A stretch of DNA of 53,267 nt, the filler included, from Dirinaria sp. TL-2023a (lineage: Eukaryota): NCBI GenBank assembly GCA_051941275.1. It is 3 parts of 3 records of this genome, joined end to end, with 100 filler letters (N's around TTAATTAATTAA, not from the genome) between each part and the next. Parts side by side here need not be neighbours in the genome. Positions count along the whole stretch, not along the records: positions 1 to 17,708 come from JAVEBF010000414.1; 2 more parts are not named here. The stretch is one strand, 5' to 3'. The first letter of the stretch is position 1. The number at the start of each line of letters is the position of its first letter. This document shows positions 8,112-18,511 of this stretch, one piece after another. The notes beneath the pieces were generated by a model, which saw only the letters and a list, made by a program, of their open reading frames with translations, was not told the DNA's origin and made no database searches. The translations under genes were made by a program, and so were the position numbers.

Positions 8112-10855
8112 ATGCGCAAGACATGGCTATCAGTACCTGGGTGTATGTTTGTTCTAATATCTCCAACACAAGAACTCGCTGATTTCGTAATCTGTGCCTA
8201 AGTTGTTCTCTGGCTCCTTCTTCCTACAATTCATGCACAACAGCAAGATGGCGTCGCTGCAGCCCAACCCTTAAAAGAGACCGAACAAACTTCAAATACA
8301 AAGCAGTATGCTGTTGCAAAGGGGAATCCTGAAGAGCTTGCGAGAATACAACAAGACGAGAACAAGAGACATAGGACCCAGGGTAGTTTTCTGCGAAAAC
8401 GACATCCTGACAGAGAAAGCCATGCTGAAAGGATTATAGCATCATACGCAGTTCAAGAAGCTCTATCGATCCTTGAGACGATCCACCCATCCCAGAGCCG
8501 CCTGACTCGTGGTGAGAGAAATAATGGAGTCTTCGGAACGACGCTTTACTACGCAAAGGAGGTCTTTCAATTGCTTTTCATGAATGGTCCATCGCAAGAT
8601 GATTACAGTAGTACAAGTCCCTCAAAGCGGAAGCTCAGCAAGCCTCTCGCAAAAGCTATAAAACTTTTGGAAAACGCTGCAGAGGACGAGGACCAAGACG
8701 CGATTTTCTTGTTGGCTGAGATGAGTTTCTTTGGGAATTATACGTATCCGAAGAATTACCAAGAAGCTTTTCGGTGGTACGACGATCTCGCATCGCTCAG
8801 TGGGAATAGCTCGGCGCAGCACATGCTGGGATTCATGTATGCCACAGGTATTGGCGGGTCGGTGGAGAGGGATCAAGCAAAGGCTTTGATGTACCATACA
8901 TTCGCGGCTCTGGGCGGCAACACGGAATCCCAGATGACCATCGCATATCGACACCATACCGGGATCGGTACACCTAGGAACTGTAATGAAGCCGCGTATT
9001 GGTACAAAGAAGTGGCCGACAAGGCTATATCATACTCCAGGTCTGGGCCACCTGGTGGCCAATCCTTGGCCAGAGACGTCTTCCGCATCGCTGACGAGCA
9101 TGGTGGCGTCTATGGCGAAGGTGCCAGTGTAGTCAGCTCTGGTGTTCATGCCAACAAAGCTGGACCGAATTCGGATCAACATGCAGCGTTTGATGATGTT
9201 CTGGAATATTTAGATCTGATGTCGCGAAAAGGCGACATTAAAGCTACTTTCAGTCTTGGTCGTATATACTACGAAGGATCTCGCACCATGAAGCGTAACC
9301 TACGGGCTGCGCGACGCCACTTCATGATGGTAGCACGCAAATACTGGGCCAAAGATGGTTCGCTTGTCACCGAAGACGGCGGTACTGGAAAAATTGCAGC
9401 TAAGGCTGCAGGGTATCTCGGCCGGATGTTTCTTCGTGGGGAAGGCATGGAGCAAAGCTTCGACAAAGCTTTGACCTGGTTTAGGAGAGGGCTTACCAAC
9501 GGAGACGCCTTGTGTGAATACGAGCTTGGTCTGATGTATCTCGAGGGTCTGGGCGTTCGTAAAGATCCCATGACCGCAGCCGATTACTTCAAGGAGGCGG
9601 CGAACCAGGATTTTGCATCTGCGCAGGTCAGGCTCGCGCAGTTGTTTCTTGATCAAGGAGATATCACGACGGCCACTCGCTACTTGGACATTGCAGCGCG
9701 ACAGGGTCATATCGAAGCCTTCTATCACTTGGCGGAGATCAGCAACAACGGCATCGGCCGTGAAAGATCCTGTGGCATGGCGACGGCTTACTACAAGCTT
9801 GTGGCTGAGAAAGTTGAGACACTACACTCGGCTTTTGACGAAGCCAACATGGAGTACGAAGAAGGCGACATAGAGGAGGCGTTGGTCACATATATGATGG
9901 CCGCTGAACAGGGCTATGAGGCGAGTCAAGCCAATGTAGCTTACATACTCGATGAGCATAGGTCGATTCTATCCCTTGATTCTCTCATGCCGTGGAAGAA
10001 ACGGCGCTCGACTCTGCTTCAAGACGCCGTTCTAGCCTTGATCTTTTGGACCCGCTCAGCCAAGCAATCCAACATCGATTCTCTGGTGAAGATGGGCGAT
10101 TACTATCTCGGCGGCTACGGCAGTGAAAAGGACATGGAGAAGGCGGCAACATGCTATCAGACGGCCGCGGAAACGCACCAGAGCGCGCAGGCATTGTGGA
10201 ACCTTGGATGGATTCACGAGAACGGTATTGGCGTCGAGCAGGACTTCCATCTTGCCAAGCGCTTCTACGACCAAGCGCTGGAAACCAGCGCAGAATCGTA
10301 CCTGCCTGTCAGGCTGAGTCTAACCAAGCTACGAGTGCGAAGTGCTTGGAACACGCTTACGCATGGGAAGGTCAACTCCATCCAGTCTGAGCCAGGTAAG
10401 ACCAGGGTTCCCTCCCTCTTCCCACCCGGCACCTTTCGCTGATTTGTGTAGAACCTCGCAAGGCATGGTCCTTTAGCGAATGGATCTCCAATTTCGTTGC
10501 TGACGACGACTCTTCCAACGCTTACTATCAGTCCGCCGAGGACGACGATTTCGTCGACCAGCAAGCCGACACGATGCCGGGCGGCGACGATTTTTACGAC
10601 ATCATCGACGAGAGCATCGTTGAAAGCCTGATCATCATCGGATTGGCCGCCACATTGGCATTTCTAGTGTATTACCGCCAGCAGCGGCAGACGAATCACC
10701 AGAGACAGCAGGTTCAAGCGCAACAAGCGCAGGTACAAGGAGGAGTGCTCGGCGTGGCGCCGCCGGTGGAGGGACAGCAAGCGGATGGAGGGTTTTTCCC
10801 ACCTGTAGGAGACCCGGGTTTTGGACAATGGGTTGCTGGAGGGGTGGGGCATTAG
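8112..10855 (+). CDS. HRD3: ERAD ubiquitin-ligase component Hrd3/Sel1L (Sel1-repeat membrane protein)
   Basis: Many Sel1 repeats (AQHMLGFMYATGIG, LVKMGDYYLGG, ALWNLGWIHENGIGVEQDFHLAKRFYD), a signal-peptide-like start, and a C-terminal TM followed by WVAGGVGH. Introns ~8141-8202, ~8382-8439 and 10396-10451. Confidence 0.9.
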
Positions 10856-11200
10856 CATGGCGCTGGCGTCTTGACCGTAGAATACTCCATTACGTTGTTT
10901 GTCTATAGGAAGCAGGGTTCCCAAAAATACTGCATTATATCGTTGCCTCTATGAAGTACCACTTCCAAAGAAAACTCGATCTTATACGTGGTCATAGGAA
11001 GTACGAGTACGATTACTCCGGTGATGCCAGATATCAAAGATGTGAGTATGTCCTCTACTTCAATGAACGTTGTCGCTTCAGTAGTACAGGCTTTCATTTG
11101 CACCTTTAAAATAATTAAAATTGAGCATGTGGTGGTGAAGTTATTATGGTAAAGGCAAAAATCCTAGGATTTCTGGCGGTTGAGGAGGCGCCTACTAGAT

Positions 11201-12764
11201 GTATTGGGGAGTTCTCGCTTAACAGCCCAAAATTGGCCTAGCGTTGGAAGGCTACTGATAAGCGAGAATTGTGTCACGTTACCATCCTCCCAACGCGCCT
11301 TTCTCCCAAATACCTAGTTCCACACGATTGTTCAGTCTGTTTCCAATCGTTCCTATCCATGCCTATCTATCATTGCATGCGCAATGGTAGTGCATTGCTG
11401 ATAATTCCTATCTTCCATTCTTAATATCATGTAATTCGCGGGTTTGCAATAGATCATGAGCCAGAATTCTCACTGTGCGTACGATGATACTTTCTCGTGT
11501 ACGGCGTAAGATTTGACATGTTGCAGATGAAAAACCTGTTCTCTTTATCGAGCAAGCAGGGTCGACGGATTTGCGCAAGTCATTGCATCGGCCGTTCCCG
11601 GTTCGACATTTCAGAATGATCCAATGATGGAGGACGCTCGAATGACGCTTCGATTCAAATGGATCTAATCTTTGAGGTACACTCGTCACCTGAACACTGT
11701 TTTGAAATATGTACATCGAGCTAACTGATGTCCAGACACATATCCAAGCCAAGCCTAAACAAAAAGTGATAATTACGAACTTCCCCAGAAAGTTCTGCAA
11801 TGTCAACTTTCTCAAGTACATCTCAATTCCCTCACATCAGCGTCATATATCGCACAAAATCAGAAGATGCTTTGCACAAGATACAGCACGTCTACACAGT
11901 CTGGAGAACAACTACATTGGTCTCACTAAGCAGTCAGAGCTGGCACCAAGTTCGAGCGGAGCATGGAGTTGAGAATGGCGAGACAATTCTCTCAGCACAC
12001 ATGCAGGCGCGCGTCGCAGATTCAGGATGCTTCTCATCAGCCTTCCACGCCTCCTCATTGCATTCAGTGTTGGCAGTCCGGAAAATCTCGAAAACCACTG
12101 GTTCTGTTGGACTTCTGTGCGCTTCAGCCATCTTCCCTAGTAAACTCAACGTTTTTTCAACATGTTCATCCACCCGTCTACCTCCAGTTATCGACCGGTG
12201 AGGGAGAGAAGAGTTCTGGCGTTAGAAGTAGCCTGCTGAGCAAGGTTGGTGTGGGTGTTCAAGTCATGAGAGGGATTGATGAGCATATTTCACTGTGTAA
12301 GGCCATATTCGTTATTTTCATAGTTGAACTTTGGAAGGGAAAGAGACTGGGTTGGCCCCCAAGCCCCAGAACCCGACCTACCTAGCTAGCTAATTCTTAG
12401 AATATCTCACTCAACGCAATCAAGATACCATGTGCCTCTTTTTCCACTACATGGAAGAGATAAAAAATAATTCAGTGCTCAGTCTATCTTGGAGCAATAC
12501 CAACTCCACCTCCTCAATTCCCAAAAGCAGGCGCGCTCGGCGCGTGACGGGCCAAGAGCGGCCTCGTATTGGGGAGCTCTCGCTTAACAACCCAAAATTG
12601 GCCTAGCGTTAGAAGGCTACTGATATCTTAAGCGAGAAATTTTCGGAATTTGGTAACTCAGTCACGTTACCATCCTCCAACGCGCCTTTTCCCCAAATAG
12701 TTCCACACGATTGTTCAGTCTATTTCCAATCATTCCTATCCATGCCTATCTATCATTGCATGCG
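11201..12764 (+). repeat. Near-identical ~180-200 bp direct repeats (11201-11381 and 12566-12764), each containing a 10-bp inverted repeat
   Basis: Both run gtattggggag.tctcgcttaaca.cccaaaattggcctagcgtt.gaaggctactgat...aagcgagaa...gtcacgttaccatcctcc...catgcctatctatcattgcatgcg, with few substitutions and short indels. Confidence 0.9.
12321..12392 (+). other. Conserved structured junction element, copy 1
   Basis: TAGTT..TGGAAGGGAAAGAGACTG-ggttggcccccaagccc-CAGAACCCGACCT-ac-CTAGCTAGCTA. Confidence 0.85.
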
Positions 12765-13804
12765 TGTCTGCAGTGGCTTTGATAAATTCCAAGAATGCTT
12801 GGAGCGATGTCTCCTTTAAGTGTCATCCATTTCGCCGGCTTACAACAAGTCATGAGTCCCGGATTCGCGCTGTAAGTAAGCATGCACGAACTTTGGATAG
12901 CGAGAGGCTGATCCGTTAAAGCTGAGAAGATCTTCACCGGTCGCAAAAGAAGCCTTGCAGCGGGCAAAGCCCATTCCACGAGAAAGAGAATTAGATATGT
13001 GTGCCCAGACGACACGTGCTTCGAGTAGCAGGATGGCGCCTTGAGTCCAAGTGAATCTGTCTACTTGAACATCTTACGAAGACTCTACATCTCGCACCCT
13101 TATTCCTCAACTTCCGCGATCCCCAGATCCAAATCCCAGGACACTGTCAAACTCGAGTTACAACAACCGTACTCGAAAACTCCTGTGTCGCTGAAGCAAA
13201 ATTCAACGTTCCGCAAGTAATCTTCCTGATTCCAGTACCTAGCTTGACCAGAGGTAAGCATTTCGAAGTAGCTTGTGCGTATCCGTACTGACCCTTGAGG
13301 TAGATATACCCTCTATTCTTCCTCGGCTCGCACCATAGAGATAACCCTGCAGTACCGAAATTCCACCTGTCTGCATTCTCCAGACCTTATCATTGCTTTC
13401 AACATTCCAACTCGGAAGCAATTTTGGGTTCGATCCGATCTTCTATCTGGCAATATCTGACTCTCTATTTGTTACTGAGTTTGGCACCTTAATTGACACC
13501 TCGCCGTCGTCGCACTTGAAATCGACGTGCCTGCGCAGCATTTCTTCAGTGAAGCTGGGAAAATTATTTGACGACCACCACAACAGACTCACATGTTCAC
13601 CTATCCATTTATTTCTAGCTATCGGCCGCTAAGGTAGAAGGACTGGTGGTGCTGGAGGGTAGTCTACAGAGCGAGTTTTGGGGCGCGTGTGTGTGTGCAG
13701 TATATTTTGATGTTTTTTCACACTGCAAAGGAAAGGACAACTCTACAGCAGAGGTTTCAATAACTCAAAAACGAGTCCTATGTTTTATACATCATTCCAG
13801 TCCA

Positions 13805-13875
13805 TAGTTGCCATGGAAGGGAAAGAGACTGGGGTGGTATCCAAGCCCCCAGAACCCGACCTCTCTAGCTAGCTA
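13805..13875 (+). other. Conserved structured junction element, copy 2
   Basis: TAGTT..TGGAAGGGAAAGAGACTG-gggtggtatccaagcccc-CAGAACCCGACCT-ct-CTAGCTAGCTA. Confidence 0.85.
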
Positions 13876-13886
13876 CTTGATGCATA

Positions 13887-13919
13887 GAAGAAGAAGAAGA
13901 AGAAGAAGAAGAAGAAGAA
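13887..13919 (+). repeat. (GAA)11 microsatellite
   Basis: Direct reading; lies just beyond junction copy 2. Confidence 0.95.
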
Positions 13920-14157
13920 AAAAAGGAAGCGTGTTCCCTGCTCGTACATTTAAATTCGTGGCCTCACTTTTCGTCCTTCTTGATTCCGGACCCCATCGTC
14001 GAAAATTTAAGCCTCCTTTCTGAATCAACATCCAATTTCACGTCATCGTTTTCAAAAGCGTAAGTGCGCGAGATGCGAGTCAAATCGTTTCACCAAATTG
14101 AGCCAGTGTTGAAAGTTCTCGCTTAAGGTAATATCAACCTACAGATACCTAAGGTAG

Positions 14158-14260
14158 CACAGCGGGTGGAACGCGCCCGCCGTACGCAAGGATACAAGGG
14201 TGTTTTTGCGGTAGACTCGGCGACTAAATCACGCTACGCGGGCGCGTTCCACCCGCTGTG
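14158..14260. mobile_element. Putative MITE / foldback element, 103 bp with 23-bp perfect terminal inverted repeats
   Basis: cacagcgggtggaacgcgcccgc (14158-14180) and its exact reverse complement (14238-14260). It is absent from the equivalent position of the other array units. Confidence 0.65.
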
Positions 14261-15410
14261 TAACTACTGTAGAGCCAAATCTAGCCTAACCTGAAGCGCG
14301 TCCTTCTCAGGATCCTTCAATACATGTATCCAACACTTCCCCTCAATAACTCCACATCCATACCATCCACCAATGGCTGCTTCGTTCTCAAACCCTTCCT
14401 CCTCAACTCACCTACCACTGCATGTTTGTTCCCAGTGTATTCAGAAGACGTCAAGATGTCTTCCAAGTCATCAAATCAGTCCGGCTTTCAAGGCATTATG
14501 AGCCCTGGATCAGCGCTGTAAGTAACCACGCCGGAATGATGGATAGTGAAAAGTCTGATATATTCTAGACTAGAGCCCCACACGATCCCAAAATTTGATA
14601 ATCTTTCGAAAACCCTCTGTCGAGCAAGTCCTCCACCACACGACGGAATCGGAAAGTAGAATTCGAGGACATCCATATTTATAACACCCACAAGTCCACG
14701 GGAACTCCAATGCAGCAGCCGAGCGCCCTAAGCCGCTAGAAATGACGCAGAGCGGACCAACTACAACTGACCTCTCAACAAACGTTCCTGCAGCTCCACA
14801 AAATCGAGAAAACGTCCTCAATTTCCAAAGCATCGATTGACCTCCTCCATTGTCCCACGGCGGATGAGCTCAAGCACCCCACAGCCTACAAGGGCCCCAA
14901 TTCTCGAGCAGTGCTTCGTGGATTAGCGGGGCTGACCAGCGACGAGTCCGATTTACGCTTAGCTTCCTCCTTATCCGCATACCTGTTGAGCGATCTATTG
15001 AGTATGACCCCAGGCCAACAAAAGTATGCCCTCACTGACCTGGGACTCAATTCCTAGTTGATCGGCTAAAATGGGTAGAGACTTCTTATCGCCTGGCAAG
15101 CCTCCCGATCACCTCGGACACCTCCTCATTTACATCCAACTCGAAAGTGGCGTTTACGCAAACATCCACTACCAGATGCCAGTCGTTCGAGTAGGGGGGA
15201 ATACTTAAGCTAGAAACAGCTTTTTGAGCGAGATCTATGTGGATATTGCAGCGTGGGTAATGCTCTGATATTATTTTCATCGGCCACTATCATGTCTATT
15301 TGGTCACTTGAATCCTTCCTGACACCAAATCTGCCCAGAGCTTAACCTCGAGGCCAAAACCTGTTTTTACTTCAAAAGCGGATCTCATGGACCATACCTC
15401 ACAACTAGGA

Positions 15411-15477
15411 TAGTTGCTCCTGGAAGGGAAAGAGACTGAAGGTTTCCACCTCAGAACCCGACCTCTCTAGCTAGCTA
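15411..15477 (+). other. Conserved structured junction element, copy 3
   Basis: TAGTT..TGGAAGGGAAAGAGACTG-aaggtttccacct-CAGAACCCGACCT-ct-CTAGCTAGCTA. Confidence 0.85.
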
Positions 15478-16798
15478 CACCGTCGAACCAAATCTTTGCC
15501 GCTCAGGCCTTATGCCTTGGTTTCCTCTCTCCATAACTAGAATCACGATCAAAGTTCCTCTTGCCTCTTTTCCTACCCCATGCTCCAGAATATCATCTAG
15601 AGCCCCACTGGTCTCCGAACCCAATGTCGGCTCACCCTCAACATTCCCAAGGGCTCACATGACCCAAGTGTTGAAAATCTCGCTTAATCCTAGCGTCTCG
15701 ACTTAGCGTGAAATCTCTTCTGATAAGCGCGTTCGAGGTTCAACCCCAAATAATCCCACATACGCTGCTTGGTTTGCACCTTCCATTTTTCTCCTCGCTC
15801 TGCCTACCTCTCAAATGGGTCCAATGTTGCGCGAAAAAATCCTCCTGGTAACTTACCATCAGATCGGGCGAGTTGCAATATCACAGGTTTGTGAGCTTAG
15901 GTAGGTTAAACGCGAACAATCAGACAGCGAAGGATTGACCTGTTCTCGAAGAAAAACTTGCACCGGTCGCGACTTGCAACGCGCTCTACAAGGCTTTCCA
16001 TCGAGCGAGTTCATTCCACCAAAAACCTCCTCTTAAATCGAAGGATGCCACAATAACGCTCTATCTCTTTCGAGATGGAAACTCAAAAACTCCTCAAAAT
16101 CTCTCTATCAGGACCCCGTATCTGCGGTTAGATAGGCCCCCTACCTGTTTCAGGGGCCCCTGGCACTGGAATCAAAAGACTAATTAAACCAGGTTCCCGA
16201 CTTGGCGGTCTATTCTCCTACTTGTGTATGCTCATAGGACACTCTGTCTTTAGAGACAGAATCTAAGCTCGACAAAAGTAATACATCGCCAAGATACTCA
16301 AACTAGTCTACCTCGGTCAAAAAGTCTCAACGGTCTTCAGTATCTCTCTCTACATCAGCGCAGCTTAACACAGAATCCACCACGCACCAACTCTACATCG
16401 TCCAAAGAAAGTTTGAGACATGAATCCATCACGCAGTCAAAAAGCGCTGCTAAGGATCAAGCAAGCCACACCAACACCACGACAAGAAAGCGCTCAAAAA
16501 CGTTGTGTCGGAAAGTTTATGGAAGCGCGGTCTCGCACATCAGCTTTCAATGTTTCGTCATTCGTATCCGGCATTGACAGTTTCGAAAGTCTGGATGCCA
16601 GTCACTTGCAGGATATCAGTCGCGCTCAGAGAGATGGGAAAGTCGGCGCGTCTCTGGAGCGGAAGTTTCACTCGTAGGGATTGCACCCATCTCAGACCAC
16701 CATTCGGGTCATGTTCTGACATAACTCGCAGCAGAACTCGAACAGAATTTTTGGCAAGCTCATGCACGCTTCATGTATAGGAAATGGGTATTATTAGA

Positions 16799-16890
16799 TA
16801 GTTCACTCCTGGAAGGGAAAGAGACTGGGGCGCGGCCTATAAGCCCCAGAACCCGACCTTCTCGTGTCAAATCCATGTAGATAGTAGCTA
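16799..16890 (+). other. Conserved structured junction element, copy 4
   Basis: TAGTT..TGGAAGGGAAAGAGACTG-gggcgcggcctataagccc-CAGAACCCGACCT, then ~22 nt, then TAGTAGCTA. Confidence 0.8.
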
Positions 16891-17708
16891 ATTTCATAGA
16901 GATTACACACTTAATTTATCTCATGTCTTCTTGACGCTCTAACATGATCCATAATCATCCCGTCCATGACATATCTAGGGTTCGGATTGATGTTTCCCCA
17001 ATCTCGCTCATCATAATCGTGCTCTTAGATTCCTCGTTCATAGCCTTCTTTCCACACCAAGCCACGAGTTATTCAAGTGATAAGTCTCAATCCAATCCAT
17101 AGCTTAGATCTGCTCTGCACTACATACATACGAAACGTTGGCCAGCGGAAATATTACTACACTACGGCTTGAAACAAACACGATCGACAAATTTGTCAAG
17201 CAACTCTTTCTTTCCATCGAGTAAGTAAGTCATTTCACTGCTGAACTCGTCTCGACGATCAGAAGAATGGTTCTAATATTGAACTTATAAGACATATATA
17301 ATTCTCGCGTTGTTGCCAGGAAGAAAGATATACAAGCCATCTCAAAAGGCGCGCCAATACTAGGTAGAGGTTACCAGGAAACTCAAAACACGAATCCGCA
17401 ATCTCGAAACAAACAAGCGTCACTTAGATAAGCAAAATCTCTCTCTCTCGAAAAAGCTCTATACATACATCAACCCAGACTCAAACGTTCAAAAGATATA
17501 CATAACTTTAAAAAAACCTCGATAACAACAAATATTCGTTAAAAATCCGAAGAATATAGTTAAGAAGAAAGATCAAACATTTCTCAAAATTAACACTTCC
17601 TTCTCGACTTCTTGTTCACACAACGTCAGCGTACCGTACAGTATTTGCGCGATCTTGAGAGCAGCAGAAACAGAATAGTACACGATCCCCCCACCCCCCA
17701 AAAAAGGC

Positions 17709-17808
17709 NNNNNNNNNNNNNNNNNNNNNNNNNNNNNNNNNNNNNNNNNNNNTTAATTAATTAANNNNNNNNNNNNNNNNNNNNNNNNNNNNNNNNNNNN
17801 NNNNNNNN
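17709..17808. other. Artificial assembly gap/linker
   Basis: 100 nt of N with a central TTAATTAATTAA (stop codons in all six frames). Confidence 0.97.
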
Positions 17809-18511
17809 CGGCTGGCATGTGACGGATATATGTGCCGCGATGGGGAGTCTGGGTCATGCGGCATTTTACGGTGTGGATGTTGGGTGCCTTACTTGCAAGA
17901 TAGGAATGGTTGGGGGAAGGTTGAGATAGGGGCGGGTGTTGATAATTTCCTTTTTGGGGCGTTCGGAACATGCAAATGTCTCATGGCGCATCCAAACAGC
18001 ATGAAGCTGAGTTCTAACTATACTAGAAATGTTTCTTGATGTTGAATTGAGGCATAATAAGGTAGATGTTGAAGAAAAGTGCCGGTAAAGACTCCGGGGT
18101 TCAGGTTCAGAGCGGAGTTGAAAAGGGTGGCAAGAAGAAAGAGCTGCGTCATGAGCATTCAAACTAGAACATTGGCCTATGGCCTCAACGGTCGTGGTAT
18201 TGAGAAGAATGGCTAGGAAGCCCATTAGGCTAGCTGTGTCAGAAGTAGTAGAGGCGAAGACGTGGGATGGGGATTATAGCTTTCATTGAGTGATCGGCCC
18301 TATCAAAATAAGGAGTGGATAACCGCGACTGCAACCTATGCTCTCCCTGTACTCACTTGCATGGTGACAACGGTAGTTCGTAGGAATTCTTATTGATTCT
18401 CTATTATTGCATGCATATGATTTCCCATCCTGCGCATCCTTGGTGTTGGTCAGAATCGTCTGTGAGCAGTTGCGACTGCTGATTCAGTTCCCATGAATTA
18501 GCATATGTACT

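Follow-up and report, generated by a model that had tools for sequence, protein, structure and literature searches.

Which kind of genetic unit preserves its junctions almost unchanged and so little of what lies between them? This question is raised by a tandem array in the genome of Dirinaria sp. TL-2023a (assembly GCA_051941275.1), which occupies positions 11201 to 17708 of the stretch of DNA analysed here (53,267 bases; called the window, which is the scope of all results on the array). The array consists of at least five head-to-tail units (U1 to U5) of 1.4–1.6 kb each with a period of 1.39–1.61 kb, and a short element, which we call J, recurs at the junctions. A first-pass annotation had regarded the units as diverged homologues of the size of open reading frames (ORFs) and had proposed an integron-like cassette array, a rolling-circle concatemer or an RNA that is cut at the junction. 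Our data lead us, tentatively, to another interpretation, according to which the units may be spliced, non-coding transcription units and J a structured element at their 3′ ends.

Recurrence and anatomy of element J

J is about 75 nucleotides (nt) long. Four copies, which are 1389–1607 bp apart, were found in the window, and the element occurs nowhere else in it:

J1, 12320 to 12393, plus strand: ATAGTT, TGGAAGGGAAAGAGACTG, hairpin top, CAGAACCCGACCT and CTAGCTAGCTA
J2, 13802 to 13876, plus strand: the four blocks of J1 with a different hairpin top
J3, 15409 to 15478, plus strand: the same blocks; the hairpin base carries the sole two-sided change (G-C to A-U)
J4, 16798 to 16891, plus strand: insertion of about 18 nt following CCCGACCT; degenerate CTAG run, with GTAGATAGTAGCTAA at 16877 to 16891

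The general layout is ATAGTT, four to six variable bases, TGGAAGGGAAAGAGACTG, a variable hairpin top, CAGAACCCGACCT, two bases (about 20 in J4) and CTAGCTAGCTA. Within J there are a polypurine tract of 15 nt and a CTAG run that is palindromic, and the hairpin top differs in sequence and length in all four copies. The distances from copy to copy are 1482, 1607 and 1389 bp.

The repeated junction that the first-pass annotation had noticed is real and goes far beyond chance. The 17-mer GGAAGGGAAAGAGACTG is present in four plus-strand copies without any mismatch (12333, 13815, 15422, 16811). No further copy was found among the 53,267 bases at up to three mismatches, where 0.18 would be expected, and none of 100 shuffled sequences reached four. 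AGAACCCGACCT follows exactly and directly after every copy of this 17-mer. CTAGCTAGCTA is exact in three of the four J copies and has no other occurrence in the window; in J4 the CTAG run is shifted by the insertion of about 18 nt and reads GTAGATAGTAGCTAA, which agrees with the earlier remark that the fourth junction is degenerate. Likewise, the minus-strand words AACTATG (copies 1 and 2) and AACTATC (copies 3 and 4) are present as had been reported. When we searched the window with an nhmmer profile of J, only the four copies were recovered (E 1e-19 to 5e-24), and the next match had an E-value of 1.1.

J is the best-kept part of the units. Its alignment yielded z-scores of 8.5–14.6 in all six unit pairs, as compared with −1.1 to 1.8 for the interiors, and in this respect the annotation was correct in stating that a short non-coding element is much better conserved than the rest. 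The alternation of discrete invariant blocks with variable linkers points to selection on J, as gene conversion would homogenise contiguous tracts and not produce such a pattern.

Predicted fold of J

The consensus fold predicted for the plus strand of J has three tiers, which are an outer stem, a middle stem and an apical hairpin. In the outer stem UAGUUG pairs with UAGCUA from the CTAG run, and in the middle stem GGAAGG pairs with CCUNYC. Below the variable apical hairpin there is an internal loop that is invariant (GAAAGAGA / AACCCGA). Since the outer stem needs two G-U pairs, it forms on the plus strand only, and the prediction for the minus strand lacks it. The variable hairpin tops fold better than their own shuffles, with 217, 96, 73 and 57 of 2000 shuffles being as good, and Fisher combination of these results gave a value of about 0.002 for copies that are not independent of each other. 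Taken together, the statistical support for the fold of J is modest, and the hairpin top is the better argument for it.

Architecture of the units

J does not border directly on the next conserved sequence. After each copy there is an unconserved spacer of about 170–240 nt, which is followed by a second conserved element, B; the units are thus not separated by the hairpin only, as had been claimed. Directly past J2, within the spacer, we observed a perfect (AGA/AAG)11 microsatellite (13886 to 13919). The copies of element B are as follows:

B1, 11201 to 11270, plus strand: inverted repeat TTCTCGCTTA ... TAAGCGAGAA, a 10-bp stem around about 37 nt; fold z −2.8
B2, 12566 to 12640, plus strand: 10-bp inverted repeat TCTCGCTTAA ... 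TTAAGCGAGA; fold z −1.85
B3, 14104 to 14275, plus strand: left arm TTCTCGCTTAAG retained (14116), the remainder being a large foldback; profile E 0.21; fold z −10
B4, 15664 to 15735, plus strand: ATCTCGCTTAAT ... CTGATAAGCGCG, stem down to 6 bp; profile E 8e-19

The foldback in U3 (14139 to 14270) has arms of 23 nt at 14158 to 14180 and 14238 to 14260, which are 100% complementary and 57 nt apart. An outer extension reads CTACAG..CTGTAG, and the RNA fold has −79 kcal/mol (z −10). This near-perfect structure may be an insertion of the foldback type or of the type of miniature inverted-repeat transposable elements.

Palindromic B is the first part of a 5′ module of about 400 nt that is common to the units and that further comprises a CT-rich tract as well as a short exon and its intron-like segment of 50–52 nt. 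In the 3′ direction from B, the CT-rich tract with CCCCAAATA..CCACA (four of four units) comes first and is followed by a block TCATC..CNGGYTT.CAA. Next come an ATG (U1 to U3), the intron-like segment of about 50 nt, a block of about 45 nt and a second donor-like site, CGA/GYRAGT. In the 45-nt block, U2 and U4 have CACCGGTCGC, and U3 and U5 have a related form with CACGATC. Read on the plus strand, each J is separated from the conserved ATG/intron block by 420–620 bases, so that the earlier conclusion that there is no room for a promoter does not apply.

Alignment of the 5′ modules of U1 and U2 gave a z-score of 24, and the other pairs ranged from 2.5 to 4.6. The corresponding feature of U1 is:

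11271 to 11455, plus strand: CT-rich part of the 5′ module of U1, up to the ATG block; 93–97% identity to U2 over 11315 to 11381

When B and the CT-rich tract are taken together (11201 to 11385 in U1, 12566 to 12768 in U2), the two units are 93–97% identical, and within about 250 nt the similarity is down to that expected by chance. Such a mosaic points either to a recent gene conversion, local to these adjacent units, or to a constraint that is much stronger here.

Splice signals and strand

The blocks around the conserved ATG, together with the remnant of the fifth unit, are located as follows:

U1, 11456 to 11557, plus strand: ATG at 11456; intron-like segment 11475 to 11526; second short exon; degenerate donor-like GCAAGC at 11552
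U2, 12852 to 12985, plus strand: ATG at 12852; intron-like segment 12872 to 12921 (GTAAGT..CTGAT..AAG); CACCGGTCGC block
U3, 14498 to 14630, plus strand: ATG at 14498; intron-like segment 14518 to 14568 (GTAAGT..CTGAT..TAG); donor-like GCAAGT at 14624
U4, 15888 to 16010, plus strand: GTG in place of ATG; intron-like segment 15901 to 15951 (GTAGGT..TTGAC..AAG); CACCGGTCGC; donor-like GCGAGT at 16005
U5, 16892 to 17708, plus strand: partial unit, AT-richer; exon-2-like block and CGA/GTAAGT at 17221; truncated by the scaffold gap

The existence of a fifth unit, which had been proposed before, is borne out by these exon-2-like and donor-like blocks between 16892 and the gap. With a relaxed intron pattern (GTRNGT, YTRAY, 5–14 nt, AG) a segment of 50–52 nt was detected at the homologous place on the plus strand of all four complete units. 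In the array as a whole this pattern matched seven times on the plus strand versus twice on the minus strand, the window-wide rate being 0.2 per kb per strand. The donors of U1 to U4 read GTGCGT, GTAAGT, GTAAGT and GTAGGT, a branch-like YTGAY motif is located 10–13 nt ahead of the AG in each complete unit, and the second exon of about 45 nt ends at the second donor-like site. Reading the intron block manually on the minus strand, we found an acceptor-like ACTTACAG without a coherent branch or donor in three of the four units. Since the intron pattern favours the plus strand and the opposite reading is incoherent in most units, we infer that the plus strand is the transcribed one.

Base composition is in weak agreement with this assignment. 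With a GC skew of −0.14, the array is poor in G on its plus strand, and the sense strands 3′ of 13 genes of the window gave a mean of −0.04 (−0.18 to +0.09), so that the skew of the array corresponds to this mean in direction and not in size. Calibration of strand composition with introns failed, as there are too few reliable introns in the window.

Divergence of the interiors

The first-pass annotation had described the interiors as collinear homologues. When we aligned the interiors of about 550–600 nt globally, the scores remained within the range of shuffled sequences in all six pairs (z −1.1 to 1.8). The same was true for the 150 nt ahead of J (six of six pairs, z −1.1 to 1.2), and the spacers after J gave at most a marginal excess (z 0.2 to 2.2). 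Collinear similarity is confined to the 5′ module, J and a block that only U1 and U2 share (12160 to 12207 and 13591 to 13638), and thus homology of the interiors could not be upheld.

As a cause of the divergence we considered hypermutation resembling repeat-induced point mutation and rejected it: the observed/expected ratios of CC/GG were 0.57–1.09 at normal GC content, which allows a mild effect at most. Comparison of U1 and U2 yielded 252 transitions versus 306 transversions over a mostly random alignment and no signature of hypermutation. The plus strands of U1, U4 and U5 (11600 to 12150, 16030 to 16700, 17000 to 17700) show a mild depletion of CC (0.57–0.69 observed/expected) and an enrichment of TC (1.46–1.64). 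This has the direction of a CpC-to-TpC change and is far too weak to call.

Coding content

The units have no conserved ORF, and nothing in them is demonstrably coding. The longest ORF of the array on either strand comprises 140 amino acids (aa), and none of the 97 six-frame segments of at least 40 aa reached the Pfam cut-off. When six-frame translations of all units were compared with each other, matches were confined to places of conserved DNA, where several frames matched simultaneously. Hence, the term ORF-sized cannot be maintained. Of the peptide remnants listed previously, VKRELPNT results from translating element B in one of several frames that match equally well, and for IISEHYP/VMSEHDP BLASTP reported no match even at E 1000. 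The proposed minus-strand order of stop, structured spacer and start is not borne out either, since the frames that begin at AACTATG/C stay open for 20, 6, 8 and 1 codons. For an open frame of 151 codons that runs into J1, none of 36 candidates proved to be a homologue at E up to 10. Exact-sequence protein look-up retrieved none of ten ORFs (nine in the array and one upstream at 10574 to 10852). A hexamer scan for coding potential, which was trained on ORFs of the window, did not separate known ORFs from controls and was discarded. Precursors of lipopeptide pheromones were rejected, as there is no recurrent short ORF ending in C-x-x-x-stop.

These data bear on the possibility that the units are fast-evolving or decayed genes of small proteins that are made of micro-exons, with J as an element of the 3′ untranslated region or as a terminator. 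Some families of peptide precursors have a conserved leader and conserved ends around a hypervariable body, and U2 and U3 share ATG AGY CCN GGA with two synonymous third-position differences. However, the frame is not kept: exon 1 is one base shorter in U1 (19 nt) than in U2 and U3 (20 nt each), U4 no longer has the ATG, and the lengths of exon 2 (48, 46, 45 and 43 nt) differ by numbers that are not multiples of three. With the homologous acceptor, U2 runs into a stop after seven codons. Among the spliced coding sequences that start at the conserved ATGs, the best (45–116 aa) are mutually unrelated and no longer than those of controls (90th percentile 98 aa), and the 151-codon frame and the ten ORFs are without counterparts, as mentioned above. 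Thus, we consider a protein-coding origin of this kind quite improbable.

Genomic context

According to the domains of its larger ORFs the window is fungal. They include a fungal rhodopsin domain, a Dus3-type dihydrouridine synthase, Sel1 repeats, Lyase_1 (fumarate-lyase family), eukaryotic porin, asparagine synthase, Pex19 and a TRI12-type transporter, all of which are fungal or eukaryotic housekeeping domains. Upstream of the array there is a plus-strand Sel1-repeat gene with its stop at 10855, and the array starts about 300 bases past its last exon. On the right, the array ends at a scaffold gap (17709 to 17808), which is written as a run of N, TTAATTAATTAA and another run of N. TTAATTAATTAA is a linker with stops in six frames. 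This join is artificial, and the sequence to its right may therefore not be the true neighbour of the array. No tRNA or tmRNA was found in the window.

Search for relatives of J

There was no match at gathering score to any Rfam family in the window. J alone gave best E-values of 7–9 with scores far below gathering, and for element B the best match was on the minus strand (E 2.3, 14 bits). No ribozyme family was reported at E up to 10, either for 10500 to 18000 or for J2 alone. A two-part J pattern of 28 bases had no match in metagenome contigs, and the J pattern had none in viral contigs. A shorter pattern of 23 bases matched two metagenome contigs (L001, L002). The first, a GC-rich bacterial stretch without a hairpin, is the same sequence as the single match in 596 Gb of prokaryote genomes (L003) and is plainly random. 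The second is a bacterial contig encoding an outer-membrane beta-barrel and YrrC-type OB domains, in which a J-like GGTCGGGAAAGAGACTGAG..CTCAGAACCCGACC is located at 839 to 903 on the minus strand. This stem-loop has the same loop strands as the core of J and a perfectly paired lower stem (GGTCGGG/CCCGACC). It is present in one copy, without any other block of J and without an Rfam match. As the number of matches is about that expected by chance (a rough estimate) and nothing else links this contig to J, we treated the resemblance as probably coincidental.

Because of the unit length and the lack of an ORF we also considered telomerase RNA. Neither strand of 10800 to 17708 contains a stretch of at least 8 nt of the telomere repeat, which we assumed to be that of filamentous fungi generally, and the Sm-like sites on the plus strand are not at homologous positions. 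This candidate was therefore dropped. The literature on Helitrons, tandem arrays of stem-loops and ribozyme repeats yielded no description of a comparable fungal array, which is not proof of absence.

Possible nature of the array

The reading that we favour, although with less than firm conviction, is that the array consists of tandemly duplicated, spliced, non-coding plus-strand transcription units and that J is a conserved structured 3′ element. A filamentous fungus would then possess at least five tandem copies of spliced, apparently non-coding RNA polymerase II units. Each of them would start with the 5′ module of about 400 nt (B, the CT-rich tract, exon 1 of about 20 nt, an intron of 50–52 nt and exon 2 of about 45 nt), continue with about 600–900 nt without detectable sequence constraint and end with J of about 75 nt. 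In the transcript, J may be the docking site for a sequence- and structure-specific protein, and the bound protein would set or protect the 3′ end, so that adjacent units would be kept from reading into each other. Constraint would be left only on the promoter-proximal module, the splice signals and the 3′ element of about 75 nt. The role assigned to J in this scheme is hypothetical.

Several points weigh against this interpretation. Transcription, strand and 3′ ends have all been deduced from the DNA, and no recognisable poly(A) signal was seen near J when the sequence was read manually. The reverse complement of the donor (ACTTACAG) resembles an acceptor, and thus no single signal decides the strand; the call depends on how donor, branch and length cohere. 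The argument from composition is weak, as four of the 13 control regions are skewed in the opposite direction. U1 has no upstream J and the 3′ end of U5 is hidden by the gap, so that J might have its role for the downstream unit. With four copies, covariation in J is statistically empty (one two-sided pair, matched by 133 of 500 shuffles), and whole-J folds are no stabler than dinucleotide shuffles (plus strand, z −0.2 to −0.55). Moreover, interiors and spacers are not demonstrably homologous. Since they are at chance level, duplication followed by divergence rests on the shared ends, the similar lengths of units and spacers and the distance from ATG to J (877–963 nt).

As an alternative, the units may be non-autonomous mobile elements, Helitron-like or of another class, the ends of which are kept for an enzyme encoded elsewhere and the interiors of which are free or captured. 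Helitrons end with a hairpin, about 10–12 nt and CTRR, and a hairpin, 12 nt and CTAG, the canonical form of such a 3′ end, are found in three of the four J copies: J1 to J3 have a GC-rich hairpin followed by AACCCGACCTNN and CTAG, and in J4 the CTAG is displaced and degenerate. Conserved ends around chance-level, unrelated-looking interiors are also the usual picture of a non-autonomous family. According to a published report, Helentrons have palindromes close to the 3′ end and terminal sequences common to diverged families, and Helentrons and Helentron-associated interspersed elements (HINE) carry subterminal inverted repeats of 12–15 bp at both ends (PMC4067079). Among mobile elements Helitrons are the closest comparison. 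However, the base after CTAG is C in three of three copies and not the T of the A/T target, and no TC boundary can be defined at the 5′ ends because conservation extends at least 10 nt upstream of TCTCGC. Apart from the CTAG palindrome, none of the four units has a subterminal inverted repeat of at least 9 nt between its 5′ and 3′ regions. The regular spacers of 172–227 nt and the regular period favour segmental duplication over repeated insertion, and there is no further J in the 53-kb window. In agreement with the first-pass annotation, no recombinase, Rep/helicase or reverse transcriptase domain, and likewise no transposase, was detected in the 18 ORFs of at least 150 aa in the window or in the 97 six-frame segments of the array. 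We therefore regard a mobile-element origin as unlikely, and the rolling-circle concatemer fits with respect to hairpin, 12 nt and CTAG and lacks the flanking base, the 5′ TC boundary, the subterminal inverted repeats and, within the window, a Rep/helicase. A layout of the long terminal repeat (LTR), terminal-repeat retrotransposon in miniature (TRIM) or retrozyme type, with the polypurine tract of J as the priming tract, was rejected, as the sequence past J is not conserved in the manner of an LTR and manual reading revealed no tRNA-complementary primer site. Integron cassettes resemble the array in their head-to-tail order and in an imperfect palindrome that occurs once per unit and has conserved outer parts and a variable centre. 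The inverse core sites of attC are RYYYAAC and GTTRRRY, and by manual reading the latter fits J1 only (GTTGAAC), that is one of four copies. The setting is a eukaryotic nucleus, there is no integrase in the 53 kb and the units contain no ORFs. Because the units have a homologous 5′ module of 400 nt in common, they are not independent cassettes of the integron type, and this part of the earlier proposal does not stand.

Other explanations assign the function to J itself. J might be a product, a small structured RNA (snoRNA-like or of a new class) that is released from a poorly constrained non-coding host transcript. GAS5/UHG-type genes are non-coding spliced hosts of small RNAs, and the array shares with them and with tandem families of long non-coding RNAs the lack of a conserved ORF, tandem paralogues, splice signals that are kept better than the exons and a single short structured element whose conservation far exceeds that of the rest. 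The invariant strands of the internal loop beneath a variable apical stem resemble guide pockets, and since manual reading showed a branch-like motif and YAG within 30 nt past J in three of four copies, J could sit near the end of an intron. In contrast to snoRNAs, manual reading revealed neither a C/D box (RUGAUGA/CUGA pair) conserved among the units nor ANANNA or ACA 14–16 nt from the pocket, and J has no Rfam family. A donor upstream of J is present in U1 to U3 and was not found in U4, the nearest predicted intron of U3 ends ahead of J, and an intronic position and release of J are only conjectural. This makes a product role of J doubtful. We rate as rather unlikely that J represents a new class of structured RNA, a three-tier stem of about 75 nt with an invariant internal loop, which would process or terminate tandem lineage-specific non-coding RNAs or would itself be a released functional RNA. 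As such, J might be a self-cleaving or endonuclease-guiding motif or the released RNA, and the 1.4-kb units might be disposable carriers, also a rather unlikely proposal; it would explain the drift to randomness outside the splice signals and J. Alternatively, the array might be read as one long plus-strand RNA in which J is the processing signal, a new self-cleaving ribozyme or an endonuclease site, that gives rise to unit-length RNAs. Head-to-tail non-coding units with one conserved structured element per period would suit such processing, and invariant unpaired nucleotides around a variable helix are the usual look of a small ribozyme core. Retrozymes provide a precedent, their RNAs being non-coding circles of 600–1000 nt (PMC5680766). 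With its non-coding units of about 1–1.5 kb, conserved repeated ends and a variable centre, the array resembles retrozymes and tandem ribozyme repeats (PMC4918200, PMC5680766), and processing of the array at a structured RNA is conceivable. However, no hammerhead, hairpin, hepatitis delta virus-like, twister, pistol, hatchet or other Rfam ribozyme model matched at E up to 10, which is also why the earlier idea of an RNA cut at the junction found no support, there are no LTR-like long direct repeats, and manual reading showed no primer-binding site. J offers one clear helix and two short ones in a fold no stabler than shuffles, and every unit has its own promoter-like 5′ module and ATG/intron block, which argues for separate transcription units. 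One long processed RNA is thus very improbable. Finally, J may act as DNA, as a protein-bound terminator, insulator or enhancer between units, and its hairpin potential would then have arisen incidentally, from palindromic half-sites or from template-switch mutation. The discrete invariant blocks of 6–18 bp with variable spacing, the 15-nt polypurine tract, the palindromic CTAG run and the unexceptional folding energy would be compatible with this. However, the variable centre keeps its hairpin potential in four of four copies despite different sequences, and the outer pairing with its G-U pairs is specific for the plus strand, so that we attach a low probability to an action of J as DNA.

Implications

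The exciting idea of a eukaryotic integron-like or rolling-circle cassette is unsupported and can be removed from the description of this locus. If the interpretation as tandem, spliced, non-coding transcription units is correct, the array would be a clear natural example of the evolution of non-coding RNA genes. In each of at least five paralogues, roughly 1 kb would be free to drift, and only the splice signals, the promoter-proximal module and a single short structured element would be kept. J itself would then be a structured motif that has escaped annotation and is absent from Rfam, and comparison of the paralogues would already have marked its functional nucleotides, which would make it easily testable.

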